Source of the DNA: Escherichia coli
Lineage (GTDB): Bacteria; Pseudomonadota; Gammaproteobacteria; Enterobacterales; Enterobacteriaceae
NCBI RefSeq assembly: GCF_003019035.1
Contig: NZ_CP027447.1
Reading direction: 5' to 3' (one strand)
Length of the DNA stretch: 64,000 nucleotides
Below the pieces are notes generated by a model. It saw only the letters and a list, made by a program, of their open reading frames with translations. It was not told the DNA's origin and did not search any database. This document shows, piece after piece, positions 7,139 to 59,352 of this stretch. The first letter of the stretch is position 1. Every line of letters starts with the position of its first letter. The position numbers were made by a program, and so were the translations under genes.

Positions 7139-7900
7139 TCATTCTGTCCACATAGCCAGTGCTAACGTTTTATCATCATCGGTACGCTCGTTTACCGCTG
7201 GGCTGGACAAAAACTGCTTTAACAATTCAGGTAATAAATCGAGTTGTTCCTGCGTTGCTGACGCCAGTCCATTGAAAAACGGGGTAAAGAAAGGCACATG
7301 CGGAGAATTATCCAGCATATTTAACGCCAGTCTCTGAATACCATCCGTAAATGCTGCAACTCTATGCGCACGCTCAGTGCTGGTGAAAGTTTCCAGTCTG
7401 AAAACGGCATCTTCATCGGTAATGAAATGCGTCATGTTGGCATATTCACCCACCATCGGCGTGAGAGGCAATTGCAGACCGTGACCCAAATCTACCACCA
7501 CGCCGCCATCGCCAATCTGCATAATCAAGGTGCCGTCAGGCGATGAAATCAGTCCCAGAAATGTGCAGGCAAAATCGCGAACCGCTAATTCTTTGGCTTC
7601 CGCCTCGGCAAAAAGTCGCTGACGAACGGTCAGCACAATATCCGTTGCGAGGACATCATTAAGCCCCAATTCCCCGCCCTGCACTTTTTGCATCATATAA
7701 GCCATCGCTTCATTGACGGCAAGCGTCGCACCTTCGCCACCCTGCGAAACGCTGCCTGCGCCATCAGCGACAAATACCGTCAATAATGGCTGCTGGTCTT
7801 CTAGCCAGGCAACCTGCATCTGGCAGGCATCCTGGCAAGGCAAGTCCGCGCTGATGTGCGACGTTCCAACGGTTGATGCATAGACCAGACGCCAGCTCAC
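7139..7900 (-). CDS. pphC: PP2C-family Ser/Thr protein phosphatase PphC (YegK)
   Basis: 253-aa ORF. Start overlaps the yegL stop by 4 nt, indicating translational coupling. PP2C-like Asp/Gly-rich motifs ([16 protein letters not shown]). Confidence 0.85.
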
Positions 7901-8556
7901 ACTGACGTCCAGCCTTTTGGCGCTTCCAGCACAACTTCCGTTCCCGGCGTGGAGCGGGAAACCGAACGCAGCGAACTGGATAACCAGCTAAATAGTTCGC
8001 GGAATTGTAATCCTTGAAGAGGCAAAGGCTGACGAACGCTGATTTGGGCCAGCGTCTTCATATCCGCCCCCTGAACACCGATGGAAAAGAAGGCAAACTT
8101 CTTATCTTCTTCCCCCTGAAACACCTTGTTGGCAGCAGCCTGCCACTCATCGGTTGGTGCGCCATCGGTAATCAGGAAAATCCACGGACGATAATAGGAA
8201 ATACCATTGGCGCGATACTCACGTTTGCGCTCCTCAACCATATTCAGGGCTTTGGTAATGGCGGCGCCCATTGGTGTATCCCCATGGGCAAACAGGATGG
8301 GCGGGAAAAAATTAGCGGCGCTGGTAAAGGGTTGTTCCACATGCACTGGGCCGAACGTCACAATACCGAGTTCCACTCTTTTTAAGGCCAGCGGGTCGGC
8401 AAGCAGCTCATCGCGAAAGGTAACCAATCCGGCGTTAAGTTCATTAATGGGTCTACCGTTCATAGAACCAGAAACATCCAGCAGCAAAATGCAGGGGCAA
8501 CGTGGTTCCGGGTTACTGGCAAAATCGCTGGTGGCAAACGTGATTTGTTCGCTCAT
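7897..8556 (-). CDS. yegL: von Willebrand factor A domain protein YegL
   Basis: 219-aa ORF with a MIDAS DxSxS motif ([11 protein letters not shown]) and a downstream ITDGAPTD motif typical of vWA domains. Confidence 0.85.
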
Positions 8557-8737
8557 AAGAAATCCTTTCTTAGAGAATTATTGAGGTCCGGTATCATACC
8601 GATTGCAATAATGAAATAAGAGCAAACGAAGAAACTTTCAGAATTAGGCCCGGCGGCGCAGAAAATTTTGCTATTCGCCTCGCAAGAACGGAGAGCCGTC
8701 GATTGACACTAAGGGCGGAGTGACATAATTTCAGGAG

Positions 8738-8886
8738 TGAGGGTTAGGGAGAGGTTTCCCCCTCCCCCTGGTGTTCTTAGTAAGCCTGGAAGCTAATCAC
8801 TAAGAGTATCACCAGTATGATGACGTGCTTCATCATAACCCTTTCCTTATTAAAAGCCCTCTTCTCCGGGAGAGGGTTTCCCGTTT
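8738..8886 (+). ncRNA. sibA: Sib antitoxin sRNA, unit 1 (SibA-like); ends approximate
   Basis: Sigma70-like promoter TTGACA(8703-8708)-N17-TAATTT(8726-8731); the transcript is fully antisense to ibs unit 1; hairpin at about 8856-8877 followed by TTTCCCGTTT. Confidence 0.65.
8777..8836 (-). CDS. ibsA: Ibs type I toxin, 19 aa (MMKHVIILVILLVISFQAY)
   Basis: Hand translation of the minus strand; it is a hydrophobic peptide that matches my memory of IbsA. Confidence 0.8.
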   Translation of the reverse strand: MMKHVIILVILLVISFQAY

Positions 8887-9072
8887 CAGCGTCCCGCTGA
8901 AATCGTCGGCTTACCTCCTTTCGCCCTGAATGCAGTCTATCGCTAACGCGTGAACAAAATAGTTTCCTCTGTGATTATTCCGTAACGACTCGCAAAGAAT
9001 ATTTGCTGGCAGGATCGCAGACTACAAAGCCTGCGGATTGACAATCTTATCGTGAAGGCATAATTTCAGGAG

Positions 9073-9216
9073 TGAGGGTAGAGCGGGGTTTCCCCCGCCC
9101 TGGTAGTCTTAGTAAGCGGGGAAGCTTATGACTAAGAGCACCACGATGATGAGTATCTTCATCATGACCCTTTCCTTATTTATGGCCCCTTCCTCGGGAG
9201 GGGCTTTCCCGTTTCA
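9073..9216 (+). ncRNA. sibB: Sib antitoxin sRNA, unit 2 (SibB-like); ends approximate
   Basis: Promoter TTGACA-N17-TAATTT(9061-9066), antisense to ibs unit 2, GC hairpin at about 9184-9204 plus T-rich tail. Confidence 0.65.
9109..9165 (-). CDS. ibsB: Ibs type I toxin, 18 aa (MMKILIIVVLLVISFPAY)
   Basis: Hand translation of the minus strand; IbsB-like. Confidence 0.75.
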   Translation of the reverse strand: MMKILIIVVLLVISFPAY

Positions 9217-9400
9217 GCGTCCCGCTGAAATCGTCGGCTTACCTCCTTCTGTCCTGTATGCAGTCTATCGCTGACTTGCGGATAAAATAGTTTCCAATGT
9301 GATTATTGCGTAACGTCTCGCAAAGAATATTTGCTGGCAGGATCGCAGACTGCAAAGCCTGCAGATTGACAATATTATCGTGAAGGCATACTTTCAGGAG

Positions 9401-9543
9401 TGAGGGTAGAGCGGGGTTTCCCCCGCCCTGGTAGTCTTAGTAAGCCGGGAAGCTTATGACTAAGAGCACCACGATGATGATCCACTTCATCATGACCCTT
9501 TCCTTATTTAAGGCCCCTTCCTCGGGAGGGGCTTTCCCGTTTC
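9401..9543 (+). ncRNA. Sib antitoxin sRNA, unit 3 (additional copy); ends approximate
   Basis: Promoter TTGACA-N17-TACTTT(9389-9394), antisense to ibs unit 3, GC hairpin at about 9512-9532 plus T-rich tail. Confidence 0.6.
9437..9493 (-). CDS. Ibs type I toxin, 18 aa (MMKWIIIVVLLVISFPAY), third copy
   Basis: Hand translation of the minus strand; IbsB-like variant with W at position 4. Confidence 0.7.
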   Translation of the reverse strand: MMKWIIIVVLLVISFPAY

Positions 9544-9700
9544 AGCGTCCCGCTGAAATCGTCGGCCTACCTCCTTTTGCCCTGAATGCAGTCTATCGCT
9601 AACGCGTAGATAAAATAGTTTCCTGTGTTATTACTGGATGCGTGCTCGCAAATGTGCCCGCCATTCAGACGATTCCCGATAGTGTTTCATAATTCCTCCA

Positions 9701-9771: not shown

Positions 9772-11019
9772 ATGAAAGGCAGTTATAAATCCCGTTGGGT
9801 AATCGTAATCGTGGTGGTTATCGCCGCCATCGCCGCATTCTGGTTCTGGCAAGGCCGCAATGACTCCCGGAGTGCAGCCCCAGGGGCGACGAAACAAGCG
9901 CAGCAATCGCCAGCGGGTGGTCGCCGTGGTATGCGTTCCGGCCCATTAGCCCCGGTTCAGGCGGCGACCGCCGTAGAACAGGCTGTTCCGCGTTACCTCA
10001 CCGGGCTTGGCACCATTACCGCCGCTAATACTGTTACGGTGCGCAGCCGCGTGGACGGTCAACTGATGGCGTTGCATTTCCAGGAAGGCCAGCAGGTCAA
10101 AGCTGGCGATTTATTGGCAGAAATTGACCCCAGCCAGTTCAAAGTTGCATTAGCACAAGCCCAGGGCCAACTGGCAAAAGATAAAGCCACGCTTGCCAAC
10201 GCCCGCCGTGACCTGGCGCGTTATCAACAACTGGCAAAAACCAATCTCGTATCTCGTCAGGAACTGGATGCCCAACAAGCGCTGGTCAGTGAAACCGAAG
10301 GCACCATTAAGGCTGATGAAGCAAGCGTCGCCAGCGCACAGCTGCAACTCGACTGGAGCCGCATCACCGCACCAGTCGATGGTCGCGTTGGTCTCAAGCA
10401 GGTTGATGTTGGTAACCAAATCTCCAGTGGTGATACCACCGGGATTGTGGTGATCACCCAGACGCATCCTATCGATTTGCTCTTTACCCTGCCGGAAAGC
10501 GATATCGCTACCGTTGTGCAGGCGCAAAAAGCCGGAAAACCGCTGGTTGTTGAAGCCTGGGATCGCACCAACTCGAAGAAATTAAGTGAAGGCACGCTGT
10601 TAAGTCTCGATAACCAAATCGATGCCACTACCGGTACGATTAAAGTGAAAGCACGCTTTAATAATCAGGATGATGCACTGTTTCCCAATCAGTTTGTTAA
10701 CGCGCGTATGTTAGTCGACACCGAACAAAACGCCGTGGTGATCCCCACCGCCGCCCTGCAAATGGGCAATGAAGGCCATTTTGTCTGGGTGCTGAATAGC
10801 GAAAACAAGGTCAGCAAACATCTGGTGACGCCGGGCATTCAGGACAGTCAGAAAGTGGTGATCCGCGCAGGTATTTCTGCAGGCGACCGCGTAGTGACGG
10901 ATGGCATTGATCGTCTGACCGAAGGGGCGAAAGTGGAAGTGGTTGAAGCTCAAAGCGCCACCACTTCGGAAGAGAAAGCCACCAGCCGCGAATACGCGAA
11001 AAAAGGAGCGCGCTCCTGA
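9772..11019 (+). CDS. mdtA: RND efflux membrane fusion protein MdtA
   Basis: ATG at 9772 gives [23 protein letters not shown] (N-terminal TM anchor), 415 aa. The ORF-track start at 9625 is an in-frame upstream extension. Stop overlaps the mdtB start. Confidence 0.9.
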
Positions 11020-14141: not shown

Positions 14142-17100
14142 GTGAAGTTTTTTGCCCTCTTCATTTACCGCCCGGTGGCGACGATTTTACTGTCGGTCGC
14201 CATTACCCTGTGCGGCATACTGGGTTTCCGTATGCTGCCAGTCGCCCCGCTGCCACAGGTCGATTTTCCGGTGATCATGGTCAGCGCCTCGCTGCCCGGT
14301 GCGTCACCAGAAACAATGGCGTCTTCCGTTGCCACGCCGCTGGAGCGCTCACTTGGGCGCATTGCCGGAGTCAGCGAAATGACCTCCAGCAGTTCGCTCG
14401 GCAGCACGCGCATTATTTTGCAGTTTGATTTTGACCGGGATATCAACGGCGCAGCGCGCGATGTGCAGGCGGCGATCAACGCCGCGCAAAGTCTGCTACC
14501 CAGCGGGATGCCCAGCCGTCCGACCTATCGCAAAGCGAACCCGTCGGATGCGCCAATTATGATCCTGACGCTAACCTCCGATACTTATTCGCAAGGTGAA
14601 CTGTACGATTTCGCCTCAACACAGCTGGCTCCGACGATTTCGCAAATCGACGGTGTCGGTGATGTCGATGTTGGCGGCAGCTCGCTGCCCGCCGTACGCG
14701 TCGGGCTGAATCCGCAGGCGCTGTTTAATCAGGGCGTCTCGCTGGACGACGTACGCACTGCCATCAGCAATGCCAACGTGCGTAAACCGCAGGGCGCGCT
14801 GGAAGATGGCACTCACCGCTGGCAGATCCAGACCAACGATGAACTGAAAACAGCCGCTGAATATCAGCCGTTGATTATTCATTACAACAACGGCGGCGCG
14901 GTTCGTCTGGGCGATGTGGCGACGGTGACCGACTCAGTACAGGATGTGCGCAACGCCGGGATGACCAACGCCAAACCGGCTATTTTGCTGATGATCCGCA
15001 AGCTGCCGGAAGCCAATATTATCCAGACGGTTGACAGCATCCGCGCCCGTCTGCCGGAATTACAATCCACCATCCCGGCAGCAATTGATCTGCAAATTGC
15101 CCAGGATCGCTCCCCTACTATCCGCGCGTCGCTGGAAGAGGTTGAGCAGACGCTGATTATCTCGGTGGCGCTGGTGATTCTGGTGGTGTTTTTATTCCTG
15201 CGCTCGGGTCGCGCCACTATTATTCCCGCCGTTGCGGTGCCGGTTTCGCTGATTGGTACGTTTGCGGCGATGTACCTGTGCGGATTCAGTCTCAATAACC
15301 TTTCGTTAATGGCACTCACCATCGCTACTGGTTTCGTGGTGGATGACGCCATCGTGGTGCTGGAAAACATTGCCCGTCACCTGGAAGCGGGGATGAAACC
15401 ACTACAGGCCGCACTGCAAGGTACTCGCGAAGTCGGTTTTACGGTGCTGTCGATGAGTCTGTCACTGGTGGCGGTGTTCCTGCCGCTGCTGTTGATGGGC
15501 GGATTGCCGGGTCGCCTGTTACGCGAGTTTGCCGTGACGCTTTCTGTCGCCATTGGTATTTCGTTGCTGGTTTCCCTGACGTTAACGCCGATGATGTGCG
15601 GCTGGATGCTGAAAGCCAGCAAGCCGCGCGAGCAAAAGCGACTGCGTGGTTTTGGTCGCATGTTGGTAGCCCTGCAACAAGGCTATGGCAAGTCGCTGAA
15701 ATGGGTGCTCAATCATACCCGTCTGGTGGGCGTGGTGCTGCTTGGCACCATTGCGCTGAATATCTGGCTGTATATCTCGATCCCGAAAACCTTCTTCCCG
15801 GAGCAGGACACCGGCGTGTTGATGGGCGGGATACAGGCGGATCAGAGTATTTCGTTTCAGGCGATGCGCAGTAAGTTGCAGGATTTTATGAAAATTATCC
15901 GTGACGATCCGGCGGTGGATAATGTCACCGGCTTTACCGGCGGTTCGCGGGTGAACAGTGGGATGATGTTTATCACCCTCAAGCCACGCGACGAACGCAG
16001 CGAAACGGCGCAGCAAATTATCGACCGTCTGCGCGTAAAACTGGCGAAAGAACCGGGGGCGAATCTGTTCCTGATGGCGGTACAGGATATTCGCGTTGGC
16101 GGACGTCAGGCTAACGCCAGCTACCAGTACACATTATTGTCCGACGATCTGGCGGCACTGCGCGAATGGGAGCCGAAAATCCGCAAAAAACTGGCGACGT
16201 TGCCGGAACTGGCGGACGTGAACTCCGATCAGCAGGATAACGGCGCGGAAATGAATCTGGTTTACGACCGCGACACCATGGCACGGCTGGGAATCGACGT
16301 GCAGGCCGCCAACAGCCTGTTAAATAACGCCTTCGGTCAGCGGCAAATCTCGACCATTTACCAGCCGATGAACCAGTATAAAGTGGTGATGGAAGTGGAT
16401 CCGCGCTATACCCAGGACATCAGTGCGCTGGAAAAAATGTTCGTTATCAATAACGAAGGAAAAGCGATCCCGCTGTCGTATTTCGCTAAATGGCAACCGG
16501 CGAATGCCCCACTATCGGTGAATCATCAGGGATTATCGGCGGCCTCGACCATCTCGTTCAACCTGCCGACCGGGAAATCGCTCTCGGACGCCAGTGCGGC
16601 GATCGATCGCGCAATGACCCAGCTTGGTGTGCCTTCGACGGTGCGCGGTAGTTTTGCCGGCACGGCGCAGGTGTTCCAGGAGACGATGAACTCGCAGGTG
16701 ATCCTGATTATCGCCGCCATCGCCACGGTGTATATCGTGCTGGGTATCCTTTACGAGAGTTACGTACATCCGCTGACGATTCTCTCCACCCTGCCCTCGG
16801 CGGGCGTTGGAGCGCTGTTGGCGCTGGAGCTGTTCAATGCCCCGTTCAGCCTAATCGCCCTGATAGGGATCATGCTATTAATCGGCATCGTGAAGAAAAA
16901 CGCCATTATGATGGTCGATTTTGCGCTCGAAGCCCAACGGCACGGTAACCTGACGCCGCAGGAAGCTATTTTCCAGGCCTGTCTGCTGCGTTTTCGCCCG
17001 ATTATGATGACTACCCTGGCGGCGCTGTTTGGCGCGCTGCCGCTGGTGTTGTCGGGCGGTGACGGCTCGGAGCTGCGGCAACCCCTGGGGATCACCATTG

Positions 17101-17219
17101 TCGGCGGTCTGGTAATGAGCCAGCTTCTGACGCTGTATACCACGCCGGTGGTGTATCTCTTTTTCGACCGTCTGCGGCTGCGTTTTTCGCGTAAACCTAA
17201 ACAAACGGTAACCGAGTAA
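14142..17219 (+). CDS. mdtC: RND multidrug efflux transporter MdtC
   Basis: 1025-aa ORF with GTG start directly after the mdtB stop; paralogous to MdtB. Confidence 0.93.
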
Positions 17220-21266: not shown

Positions 21267-21519
21267 TTACGATGCCGGGCGTGGGTTGTTGGCGTCCGGC
21301 TTTATATCAAAACAACTCTTAGTTATTGATAATTAAGATTAACCTCCGCCATTAAAATAGTGGGCACTGACGAGCACTCGTTGTGCTTTCTTTGTTTACC
21401 ATCCCATACTTATCTTCCTGAACATGTTCATATGCCAAAATATCTTCTAATACTTTCGTGACGCTATCCGGTTTATGAAATACACTGATGTAAGATTTTT
21501 ACTTACAGGCGGGTGTAAA

Positions 21520-21771
21520 ATGGCCAGAACGATGACGGTTGATCTCGGCGATGAGTTGCGTGAATTTATCGAGTCCTTAATTGAATCCGGCGACTATCGC
21601 ACCCAAAGCGAAGTGATCCGTGAGTCGCTGCGCTTACTTCGAGAAAAGCAAGCAGAGTCTCGCCTGCAAGCGTTACGTGACATGCTCGCTGAAGGGTTGA
21701 GTAGTGGTGAAGCTCAGCCGTGGGAAAAGGACGCGTTTTTACGGAAGGTGAAAGCAGGGATAAGGAAATAA
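21520..21771 (+). CDS. ParD-family (RHH) type II antitoxin
   Basis: 83 aa from the ATG at 21520 (MARTMTVDLGDELREFIESLIESGDYRTQSEVIRESLRLL), a typical ParD N-terminus. An alternative start exists at 21475. Stop lies 1 nt before the partner gene start. Confidence 0.75.
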   Translation: MARTMTVDLGDELREFIESLIESGDYRTQSEVIRESLRLLREKQAESRLQALRDMLAEGLSSGEAQPWEKDAFLRKVKAGIRK

Positions 21772-21772
21772 T

Positions 21773-22069
21773 GTGCGTACTATAAAACTCATGCCAAAAG
21801 CCAATGAGGATTTAGAAGGCATCTGGTATTACAGCTATCACCATTTCGGCGAACCACAAGCCGACAGATATGTGGAACATCTTTCAGACGTTCTCCAGAT
21901 TCTGAGTAACAATAATATAGGTACGCCCAGACCTGAATTAGGCGAAGGTATTTTTGTTCTTCCTTTTGAACGCCACGTAATTTATTTCCTGCAATCACCA
22001 GAGGAAATTATCGTCATTCGTATCCTTAACCAAAACCAGTACGCCTCCAGACATTTACACTGGAGCTAA
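21773..22069 (+). CDS. ParE/RelE-fold type II toxin
   Basis: 98 aa from the GTG at 21773 (alternative ATG at 21791). The N-terminus (KANEDLEGIWYYSYHHFGEPQADRY) and C-terminus (HVIYFLQSPEEIIVIRILNQNQ) follow the ParE pattern. Confidence 0.75.
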   Translation: MRTIKLMPKANEDLEGIWYYSYHHFGEPQADRYVEHLSDVLQILSNNNIGTPRPELGEGIFVLPFERHVIYFLQSPEEIIVIRILNQNQYASRHLHWS

Positions 22070-23533: not shown

Positions 23534-23617
23534 TTCATTTCGATTATTTTTCCCGGATGGAAAATTCTTAGAAACCGATCACATACAGCTGCATTTATTA
23601 AGGTTATCATCCGTTTC

Positions 23618-23704
23618 GCTGAAAAACATAACCCATAAAATGCTAGCTGTACCAGGAACCACCTCCTTAGCCTGTGTAATCTCCCTTACACGGGCTTATT
23701 TTTT
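23618..23704 (+). ncRNA. cyaR: CyaR (RyeE) Hfq-dependent sRNA
   Basis: Sequence GCTGAAAAACATAACCCATAAAATGCTAGCTGTACCAGGAACCACCTCCTTAGCCTGTGTAATCTCCCTTACACGGGCTTATTTTTT matches CyaR as I remember it, including the terminator hairpin and U-tail. Confidence 0.85.
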
Positions 23705-39840: not shown

Positions 39841-39980
39841 AGTTTGCTCCTGCCATAACGTGAAGAAGCAATGACCTGGTGGTCCGTGACTTCCCTACGC
39901 TGGCATTATCCAGATCAGGTGATACGGGTATTTCTCAGCCTTTACGCAGAAGGGCACCCCGAGTCGTTTGGTTGCGATAA
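39841..39980 (-). ncRNA. TPP (thi-box) riboswitch in thiM leader
   Basis: Minus strand contains GGGGTGCCCTTCTGCGTAAAGGCTGAGAAATACCCGTATCACCTGATCTGGATAATGCCAGCGTAGGGAA, the conserved TPP aptamer with its CUGAGA motif. Confidence 0.9.
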
Positions 39981-58940: not shown

Positions 58941-59030
58941 TTACTTCAACAAATCAATCAGCCGTAACAGAGCCACTAATAACTCCAGTACGGCAATGAG
59001 CACGGTTAACTTTTGTGTCAGCGTGTCCAT
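58941..59030 (-). CDS. Unannotated 29-aa hydrophobic peptide, TisB/DinQ-like type I toxin candidate (MDTLTQKLTVLIAVLELLVALLRLIDLLK)
   Basis: Hand translation of the minus strand. AAGGAG sits 5 nt before the ATG. The product is a single amphipathic helix resembling TisB and DinQ from memory. It is below the ORF-track size cut-off. Confidence 0.55.
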   Translation of the reverse strand: MDTLTQKLTVLIAVLELLVALLRLIDLLK

Positions 59031-59268: not shown

Positions 59269-59352
59269 GTTGGAACACGATGTTGCACAGGCCGTGGTGT
59301 TAGGCCTGAAAGTAGTAAATAAAAGAACCTGCCTCACCAGCAGGTTTTTTTA
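59269..59352 (+). ncRNA. Putative ~80-nt trans-acting antitoxin-like sRNA
   Basis: Predicted 5' end GTTGGAACACGATGTTGCAC; internal stem-loop CAGGCC-N9-GGCCTG at 59288-59308; AU-rich linker; terminator ACCTGC-ctcacca-GCAGGT plus a run of 7 T (59327-59352). Confidence 0.5.

Follow-up and report, generated by a model that had tools for sequence, protein, structure and literature searches.

A three-unit array of ibs/sib type I toxin-antitoxin genes in the yegL-mdtA interval as an ordinary copy-number variant of Escherichia coli

Ibs toxins and their antisense Sib RNAs make up a family in which tandem duplication is a family trait, O157:H7 Sakai having seven Ibs genes and K-12 five (Fozo et al. 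2010, PMC2887945). For the K-12 pairs it has been found that overproduced Ibs is toxic and that the cognate Sib neutralises it (PMC4147584, PMC2943612). Repression is cognate-specific and acts via two target-recognition regions, TRD1 and TRD2 (Han et al. 2010, PMC2943612), and it involves a translation block together with RNase III processing (Wen and Fozo 2014, PMC4147584). The ldr/rdl and EHEC zorO-orzO/zorP-orzP systems are built on similar lines, with a small hydrophobic toxin and an antisense RNA that are repeated per intergenic region and vary in copy number between strains (PMC2887945), but they belong to unrelated sequence families, and OrzO lies outside the toxin ORF whereas Sib runs fully across it. 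A single zorO-orzO copy was also present in the window, that is, in the whole 64,000-nt stretch of DNA that was analysed here. The founding paper on Sib and Ibs, Fozo et al. 2008, reportedly notes that the repeat number of the family varies between related bacteria. Such variation is also known from Fozo et al. 2010 (PMC2887945) and from RefSeq annotation.

We found that the yegL-mdtA region of the window, which is the standard site, very probably carries the chromosomal array of ibs/sib type I toxin-antitoxin units of E. coli in a three-unit form. Published work already covers the family, how it acts, its arrangement in tandem and its variation in copy number; the three genes are in RefSeq for an identical sequence, and the discovery value of the locus is small.

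Anatomy of the array

The array is anchored on the left by yegL, which encodes a vWA-domain protein (7897–8556, minus strand; identified from the ORF and from the RefSeq annotation of an identical strain), and on the right by mdtA (9772–11019, plus strand; taken from RefSeq annotation, with the ATG at 9772 read from the sequence). Between the two genes, Tandem Repeats Finder reported a single array at 8724–9623 (period 328, 2.7 copies, 89% matches, score 1409), and a repeat search returned three-copy families across the region, with start-to-start spacings of 335 and 328 between units. From these analyses the whole tandem array of three ibs/sib units was placed at 8703–9652, with a period of 335/328 bp and its end at a shared CTCGCAAA motif; the right boundary was set by aligning the spacer to the region after Sib-3.

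The Rfam model RF00113 (SIB_RNA, gathering score 56) matched the plus strand at 8703–8851 (149.5 bits), 9038–9180 (142.6 bits) and 9366–9508 (141 bits), each match spanning the full model (positions 1–147) with an E-value of about 1e-30. Transcript starts and ends were placed by homology to the sibA and sibB annotation of K-12 (NC_000913.3). On this basis Sib-1 occupies 8739–8882 of the plus strand and is identical to K-12 SibA at 143 of 144 nt, and Sib-2 occupies 9074–9209 of the same strand and is identical to SibB at 135 of 136 nt, the sole difference being G83T. Sib-3 (9402–9537, plus strand) belongs to a 'W-type' unit that is not in K-12. All three RNAs share one fold architecture, with z-scores of −4.9, −4.1 and −4.6, respectively.

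Each ibs ORF lies, together with its ribosome-binding site, wholly within its Sib transcript on the opposite strand. The ibsA ORF of unit 1 (8777–8836, minus strand) encodes 19 aa plus stop, MMKHVIILVILLVISFQAY, a peptide identical to K-12 IbsA and annotated as WP_010723109.1 in both K-12 and strain SCU-301. Unit 2 encodes 18 aa plus stop, MMKILIIVVLLVISFPAY (9109–9165, minus strand; WP_100792650.1, an Ibs family toxin in SCU-301), which is K-12 IbsB with the substitution L4I (17/18 identity). Unit 3 also encodes 18 aa plus stop, MMKWIIIVVLLVISFPAY (9437–9493, minus strand; WP_012767741.1); this peptide opens MMKWI..., is identical to IbsB at 16 of 18 residues and is annotated in BL21, NEBExpress, O157:H7 and APEC37 as well. 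RefSeq annotates three Ibs toxins in SCU-301, whose locus is 100% identical, and NCBI names all three peptides in that record 'type I toxin-antitoxin system Ibs family toxin / IbsA'. The initial annotation, made from the letters alone, had described three ibs/sib direct repeats with Ibs on the minus strand inside Sib on the plus strand; this was borne out by Tandem Repeats Finder, Rfam and the translations, and the peptides it had written match the minus-strand translations letter for letter.

In all three units a −35 element TTGACA, a 17-bp spacer and a −10 element TAATTT or TACTTT align with K-12 sibA and sibB, and it was by this homology only that the Sib promoters were assigned. The promoter of unit 1 (8703–8731, plus strand; −35 TTGACA at 8703–8708, 17-bp spacer, −10 TAATTT at 8726–8731) is identical to that of K-12 sibA. 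Transcription would start 7 nt downstream of it according to the K-12 annotation and the published +1G, a start reported for sibA and sibB (PMC12956327). The promoter of unit 2 (9038–9066, plus strand) has −35 TTGACA at 9038–9043 and −10 TAATTT at 9061–9066, and the exact 63-mer at 9038–9100 was found in 1511 of 5310 matching records. That of unit 3 (9366–9394, plus strand) has −35 TTGACA at 9366–9371 and −10 TACTTT at 9389–9394. This last hexamer had been singled out as a variant −10. It is indeed present, but it is the reference state of K-12 sibB and also the −10 of every last unit in 13 of 13 other distinct arrays (15 loci, two pairs being identical), and the departure from the K-12 −10 is instead the TAATTT of unit 2. 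A simple sigma-70 consensus scan flagged none of the Sib promoters and found only one hairpin; the promoters were missed because their −10 fits the consensus at only three of six positions, and the scan was set aside as uninformative.

The units are followed by a conserved spacer block, recovered as a three-copy family (D2, 85–90% identity) at 8854–8977 (3′ of unit 1), 9182–9305 (3′ of unit 2) and 9510–9633 (3′ of unit 3). In the first copy the Sib terminator hairpin lies at 8857–8876, and after the third the repeat gives way to unique sequence by 9652, as judged from the repeat search and alignment. A search by eye for ibs promoters in the conserved spacer gave no convincing −35/−10 pair; the minus strand of the block at 8854–8977 putatively holds the ibs promoter and its 5′ UTR.

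The segment from yegL to unit 1 (8557–8702) was defined as a fixed left flank by alignment to the units and by strain comparison. A partial fourth-unit remnant had been suspected around 8640–8700. Local alignment of 8640–8700 to the units was not significant, 93–97 of 500 shuffles reaching its score of 17, and no sib or ibs sequence was found within it. Furthermore, 8600–8702 is identical at 102–103 of 103 positions across strains with 1, 2, 3 or 4 units. Because it has no significant local similarity to the units and is nearly invariant whatever the unit number, 8640–8700 is part of the fixed left flank, namely the upstream region of unit 1 itself, and the proposed remnant was rejected. When the wider segment 8560–8702 was compared with the spacers, local alignment was likewise not significant. 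Only in register, in a global alignment, did the sequence do better than its shuffled versions, and weakly so: the similarity of 8640–8700 to the ~60 nt that precede the other two Sib promoters is reached by 3–6 of 1000 shuffles.

Copy number among complete genomes

We determined how many units E. coli carries at this site by inferring unit number from the flank-to-flank distance in about 5,416 complete genomes; spans and Ibs annotations agreed on the listed rows. Flank distance was used because the identity bands of one whole-locus BLAST were ambiguous, four-unit and two-unit genomes sharing a band. One unit was found in 1.6% of the genomes, two in 41.0%, three in 40.1% (2171/5416) and four in 11.6% (627/5416), the locus being longer or interrupted in the remaining 5.7%, and since the collection is rich in clinical and laboratory lineages these percentages apply to the database rather than to natural populations. 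Cumulatively, 89 of the 5416 genomes have at most one unit, 2308 at most two, 4479 at most three and 5106 at most four. At least three units are present in about 57% of complete genomes, a figure that includes the ~5.7% with a longer or interrupted locus. Among the reference arrays, there are 2 units in K-12, 3 in O157:H7, 4 in both BL21 and NEBExpress, and 1 in one of the strains sampled.

The initial annotation had given two copies for K-12 (ibsA/sibA and ibsB/sibB), correctly, and had concluded that the present array was expanded or differently retained. The array does differ from K-12 by gain or loss of a unit, but with three units it is no exception. As a state that would speak against expansion it had named three units in both K-12 and most strains; what we found is half of this, with two units in K-12 and at least three in most genomes. 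The two-unit state of K-12 is not the species norm: arrays of two and of three units are about as frequent as each other, and 12% of complete genomes have four. The three-unit array is an ordinary, already annotated copy-number variant.

Relationship to reference arrays and origin of the third unit

As judged from the alignments, unit 1 is the orthologue of K-12 ibsA/sibA and unit 2 that of ibsB/sibB, and unit 3 is of the widespread 'W' unit type, which is absent from K-12 and carried by BL21 and O157:H7. K-12 and the window have the same site and flanks, a SibA that agrees at 143/144 nt with an identical IbsA, and a SibB that agrees at 135/136 nt with an IbsB that differs by L4I. They differ in that K-12 has two units, compared with three here, and has no W-type unit, and in that the −10 of K-12 sibB is TACTTT whereas that of window unit 2 is TAATTT. 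O157:H7 resembles the window in having three units at this locus, with ibsA first, and one of its units encodes the identical unit 3 peptide; these three belong to the seven Ibs genes reported for O157:H7 Sakai (PMC2887945). Its composition and order, however, are A - W - X, X being MMKILIIVVLLVISYPAY, compared with A - B′ - W in the window. The arrays of BL21 and NEBExpress (A - B - W - X) contain all of the window's unit types in the same order and differ from it in carrying the fourth unit, X. The pattern of variable sites revealed that unit 3 of the window is a mosaic, matching BL21 unit 3 across the Sib/ibs body and then the BL21 unit 4 or terminal-spacer type. The window array resembles a BL21-like array of four units cut down to its first three, with unit 3 running straight into the terminal spacer, and its sequence is consistent with the X unit having been removed from such an array by one unequal crossover.

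Three other accounts of the array were considered. According to the first, the array would look intact but one or more units would be decaying relics, with only the sibA and sibB orthologues functioning and unit 3 silent or non-toxic. K-12 does live without unit 3, and the 1.6% of genomes that keep only one unit point the same way. We nevertheless regard this account as improbable. Unit 3 has a perfect −35 TTGACA, the −10 of K-12 sibB, an intact ORF, an AAGGA-type ribosome-binding site and a terminator hairpin; its Rfam score of 141 bits and its fold z-score of −4.6 likewise argue against decay, and its peptide is conserved in distant lineages.

It is still less likely that unit 3 arose by a recent strain-specific duplication, as a tandem copy of the sibB unit and a private expansion from a two-unit norm. 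K-12 has only two units, as this would predict, and the exact allele is rare, with only 4 records matching the whole 1.5-kb locus at ≥99%. Units 2 and 3, however, are only ~91% identical over 300 nt, and Sib-3 differs from Sib-2 at 6 of 136 positions (+45, +80 to +83 and +110). The peptide and Sib body of unit 3 are those of the 'W' type, to which BL21 unit 3 and O157:H7 unit 2 also belong; the Sib-3 transcript is exactly that of O157:H7 unit 2 and is two nucleotides off that of BL21 unit 3. The 2171 complete genomes with exactly three units and the 627 with four also speak against a private event. A tandem repeat mis-assembled to the wrong unit count is scarcely credible: ~330-bp repeats can collapse or expand in short-read assemblies, but the units here are readily told apart at 72–91% identity, a complete-genome record matches the locus at 100% identity, and thousands of complete genomes show this architecture.

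Predicted regulation and exchange of specificity regions

For the three-unit array at its standard site, the following model is drawn from the literature on the K-12 pairs and from the features described above, and it concerns expression, toxicity, repression and recombination history. Each unit would produce a Sib antisense RNA of ~136–144 nt from the plus strand, using a sigma-70 promoter (TTGACA, 17 bp, TAATTT or TACTTT, +1G), while an ibs mRNA from the minus strand would be translated into a hydrophobic membrane toxin of 18–19 aa. Sib would first pair with this mRNA via TRD1, a predicted loop that faces the 3′ half of the ORF, and via TRD2, predicted to be single-stranded and to lie over the translation initiation region. 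Pairing would block translation and lead to RNase III-dependent decay of the mRNA, such that the toxin would not be made when Sib is present. Variation in unit number would likely come from homologous recombination of an unequal kind, between 328-bp units that are ~90% identical.

We then compared 20 non-A units from ten arrays and found that nearly all variable Sib positions fall in three places: the loop equivalent to TRD1 (+42 to +64), the P6 loop (+80 to +83) and a single site bordering TRD2. In the peptides they map to residues 4–5 (LL, IL, WI or RL) and 15 (F, Y or W), which occur in many combinations. That the differences between units cluster in the Sib target-recognition regions is mildly new, as is the cross-reaction of units 2 and 3 that looks likely from their sequences. 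We found no population-level account of array or specificity shuffling in the searchable literature, of which neither Fozo et al. 2008 itself nor the supplements of Fozo et al. 2010 were part. Our tentative suggestion, which we hold to be possible but doubtful, is that the yegL-mdtA array, instead of merely varying passively as a repeat, is a recombining cassette system in which the parts of Sib and ibs that set specificity are shuffled among units and strains, and in which units 2 and 3 may cross-repress, unlike the orthogonal SibB to SibE of K-12. Work on Sib/Ibs regulation, or with BL21 or O157:H7, should allow for additional Sib species, some of them probably cross-reactive.

The case for cross-repression comes from the stretches that the two RNAs share. 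Sib-2 and Sib-3 are identical without a break over 34 nt that include most of TRD1 and over 26 nt that include all of TRD2. Helices of 22–25 bp were found to be enough for repression (Han et al. 2010, PMC2943612), and because both shared stretches exceed this length, Sib-2 and Sib-3 may each be able to repress the toxin mRNA of the other.

The ibs/sib array between yegL and mdtA

The interval between yegL (7897-8556, minus strand), the left neighbour of the array, and mdtA (9772-11019, plus strand), its right neighbour, was scanned with the Rfam model RF00113 (gathering score 56). We found SIB_RNA matches on the plus strand at 8703-8851 (149.5 bits), 9038-9180 (142.6 bits) and 9366-9508 (141 bits), and no match beyond these three in the interval. 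Tandem Repeats Finder reported one tandem array at 8724-9623, with 2.7 copies of a 328-bp period (89% matches, score 1409), and a repeat search of the region gave three-copy families whose members start 335 and 328 bp apart. The three ibs/sib units that the initial annotation had placed here were therefore confirmed, far beyond chance. On the minus strand, the ibs ORFs of units 1, 2 and 3 (8777-8836, 9109-9165 and 9437-9493) translated as MMKHVIILVILLVISFQAY, MMKILIIVVLLVISFPAY and MMKWIIIVVLLVISFPAY, respectively, in exact agreement with the peptides read initially.

Transcript ends were transferred from the curated K-12 record NC_000913.3 (sibA 144 nt, sibB 136 nt), and homology to this annotation placed the RNAs of the three units, Sib-1, Sib-2 and Sib-3, at 8739-8882, 9074-9209 and 9402-9537 on the plus strand. 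In each unit the ibs ORF and an AAGGA-type ribosome-binding site lay within the Sib transcript; T1TAdb describes a full overlap of ibs mRNA with Sib (PMC8594479). The three RNAs shared a fold that combines a closing stem with a 5′ hairpin, a long, large-looped hairpin, a start-codon hairpin, a single-stranded stretch and the terminator (z-scores against shuffles of −4.9, −4.1 and −4.6 for Sib-1, Sib-2 and Sib-3). A 124-nt block 3′ of each Sib (8854-8977, 9182-9305 and 9510-9633) was conserved at 85-90% identity and contained the terminator hairpin. We infer that the ibs promoter and 5′ UTR also lie in this block; an ibs promoter was sought but none was mapped, and the generic promoter scan was uninformative. 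Judged from sequence, by covariance model, ORF geometry and the homology of peptides, promoters and terminators, the array belongs to the Ibs/Sib family.

A partial fourth unit had also been proposed at about 8640-8700, and this candidate was rejected. No Sib or Ibs sequence was found in 8640-8700, and the score of a local alignment of 8560-8702 with the inter-unit spacers was reached by 93-97 of 500 shuffles. Furthermore, 8600-8702 was identical at 102-103 of 103 positions among strains carrying from one to four units, and the array length from about 8655 to 9652 corresponded to three periods and no more. Aligned in register from the −35, the ~60 nt preceding unit 1 showed only a weak likeness to those preceding units 2 and 3 (3-6 of 1000 shuffles reached the score). 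The segment is thus the fixed left flank, and at most a diverged upstream part of unit 1.

Copy number across E. coli

As had been stated initially, the K-12 record shows two units at the yegL-mdtA locus, compared with three in the window. Sib-1 was identical to K-12 SibA at 143 of 144 nt, with identical peptides, and Sib-2 to SibB at 135 of 136 nt, the sole change (G83T) turning Leu4 of IbsB into Ile. Sib-3 differed from SibB at six positions. Taken together, these comparisons show that the unit absent from K-12 is unit 3.

Of 5,426 complete E. coli genomes searched by whole-locus megablast, 5,419 carried the locus, and an evenly spaced sample of the rows contained one-, two-, three- and four-unit versions. 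The census used synthetic queries made of the left and right flanks only. Two BLAST pieces were joined as one place if the distance between them was no more than 500 bases plus half the query length; because this rule depends on query length, query length set how far apart the flanks could lie and still be joined. The flanks were joined at up to one, two, three and four units in 89, 2308, 4479 and 5106 of 5416 genomes, respectively. The results revealed one unit in 89 genomes (1.6%), two in 2219 (41.0%), three in 2171 (40.1%), four in 627 (11.6%) and a longer or interrupted locus in about 310 (5.7%), these shares being database frequencies in a collection skewed to clinical and laboratory strains. 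About 57% of genomes were counted with at least three units, including the ~5.7% in the longer-or-interrupted class. The census class agreed with the record span and the annotated Ibs gene count in every listed row; for example, two-unit rows spanned 1236 nt with the 600-nt query, three-unit rows 2220 nt with the 1256-nt query and four-unit rows 3204 nt with the 1912-nt query. O157:H7 has three units at this locus, as in the window, whereas BL21 and NEBExpress have four. On these counts three units are as common as the two of K-12, and the initial view of three as unexpected did not hold.

SIB repeat number is said, from work by Fozo and colleagues in 2008, to differ among related bacteria. 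For SCU-301, whose genome is identical, RefSeq already annotates three Ibs toxins. O157:H7 Sakai has seven Ibs genes against five in K-12, tandem duplication being a family trait (Fozo et al. 2010, PMC2887945). With copy-number variation published and the RefSeq annotation in place, the three-unit array is already known. Only the population-level angle is mildly new, namely the near-equal two- and three-unit frequencies and the shuffled specificity positions, together with such cross-talk as may occur between adjacent units.

Two examples of the residual 5.7% class were inspected, an IS150 insertion and a prophage insertion. In strain 571 (NZ_CP183117.1), IS150 (490-1859 of that locus) lies between the last unit of a three-unit array and mdtA, and is thus one source of the genomes whose flanks are too far apart. 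Some genomes carry a prophage (integrase, excisionase) between the array and mdtA. The junction in strain OkiPb01713 (NZ_AP042682.1; 2782-3126 of that locus, equivalent to window 9498) falls inside the last unit, at a point immediately upstream of the ibs start codon that lies in the 3′ part of Sib; this one junction suggests a role for the Sib gene as a phage attachment site.

Sib promoters, pairing domains and unit types

The Sib promoter of every unit consisted of a −35 TTGACA, a 17-bp spacer, a −10 hexamer and a +1G 7 nt later. A +1G start is reported for sibA and sibB (PMC12956327), and the 5′ end of SibC, deducible from an oligonucleotide in PMC2943612, agrees with it. The −10 was TAATTT in units 1 and 2 and TACTTT in unit 3. 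The unit 3 hexamer had been correctly read but is no variant, as TACTTT is the hexamer of K-12 sibB and of the last unit in 13 of 13 other distinct arrays (15 other loci, two pairs identical). It is unit 2, with a sibA-like TAATTT, that departs from K-12; of 5310 matching records, 1511 carried its promoter and 5′ Sib (63 nt) without a mismatch, and K-12 derivatives were in the one-mismatch class. Both hexamers agree with the TATAAT consensus at three of six positions, and the promoter sequences give no reason to expect a large toxin-to-antitoxin shift, nor one particular to unit 3.

Ibs toxins reportedly act at the inner membrane, a statement attributed to Fozo and colleagues in 2008. A 2025 preprint describes inhibition of the Fo part of ATP synthase by Salmonella IbsA. 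Sib RNAs repress cognate ibs mRNAs, and pairing is begun by two independent target-recognition domains. TRD1 is a loop inside the ORF (SibC +46 to +68). TRD2 (+99 to +115) covers the translation initiation region and depends on both the closing stem and a contact made by the loop of the adjacent hairpin. Swaps of TRD1 or TRD2 alter specificity, and contiguous 22-25 bp helices are enough (PMC2943612). Pairing blocks ribosome binding, and RNase III-dependent processing follows (PMC4147584).

In B-type (K-12 sibB-like) Sibs the equivalents are +42 to +64 (TRD1) and +92 to +109 (TRD2). Among non-A units (those other than the ibsA-like first unit) from ten arrays, nearly all variable Sib positions fell in TRD1, the 4-nt start-codon hairpin loop or one TRD2-edge site. 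These clusters correspond to residues 4-5 and 15 of the peptide, and on sequence comparison these residues recombine freely between strains. Sib-2 and Sib-3 differed only at +45, +80 to +83 and +110, leaving unbroken identity over 34 nt across most of TRD1 and 26 nt across all of TRD2. Because of these perfect runs, Sib-2 and Sib-3 may each repress the other's target as well, in contrast to the K-12 pairs, which are orthogonal.

When units were extracted from 15 further loci, we found that the first unit (IbsA) was conserved, and that B-like peptides combined, in many different ways, LL, IL, WI or RL at residues 4-5 with F, Y or W at residue 15. With A for the first unit, the arrays read A - LL/F in K-12, A - IL/F - WI/F in the window, A - WI/F - IL/Y in O157:H7, A - LL/F - WI/F - IL/Y in BL21 and A - LL/F - LL/Y in several B1-like strains. 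Unit alignment revealed that window unit 3 shows the BL21 unit 3 pattern across the Sib/ibs body and the BL21 unit 4/terminal-spacer pattern beyond it, that O157:H7 unit 2 joins a unit-B promoter to the body of the WI-peptide type, and that K-12 unit 2 joins a B body to the terminal spacer. The simplest reading of these mosaics would be that units of ~90% identity have repeatedly undergone unequal crossover. The three-unit architecture is common despite the rarity of the window's exact 1.5-kb allele (4 records at ≥99%, including SCU-301 at 100%).

Other features of the window

A second type I toxin–antitoxin system, with a 29-aa ZorO-like ORF (MDTLTQKLTVLIAVLELLVALLRLIDLLK), was found at 58941-59030 (minus strand) and 59276-59351 (plus strand), with a match to the Rfam OrzO-P antitoxin RNA (98.9 bits, cut-off 60). 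This locus is single copy, with no tandem repeat; in O157:H7 the ZorO locus is described as tandem, and K-12 as lacking it (Fozo et al. 2010, PMC2887945). Between yegP and yegQ, two 98-aa ORFs lie one base apart on the plus strand (21475-21771 and 21773-22069), and in the identical strain RefSeq annotates them as a type II pair of a ParD-family antitoxin and a RelE/ParE-family toxin. CyaR/RyeE sRNA (23616-23701, plus strand, 100.7 bits) and a TPP riboswitch (39875-39971, minus strand, 72 bits), both above the Rfam gathering score, are expected for this chromosomal region. RefSeq calls mdtC (14142-17219, plus strand) a frameshifted pseudogene in SCU-301, yet in the window it is one uninterrupted ORF of 1025 codons.
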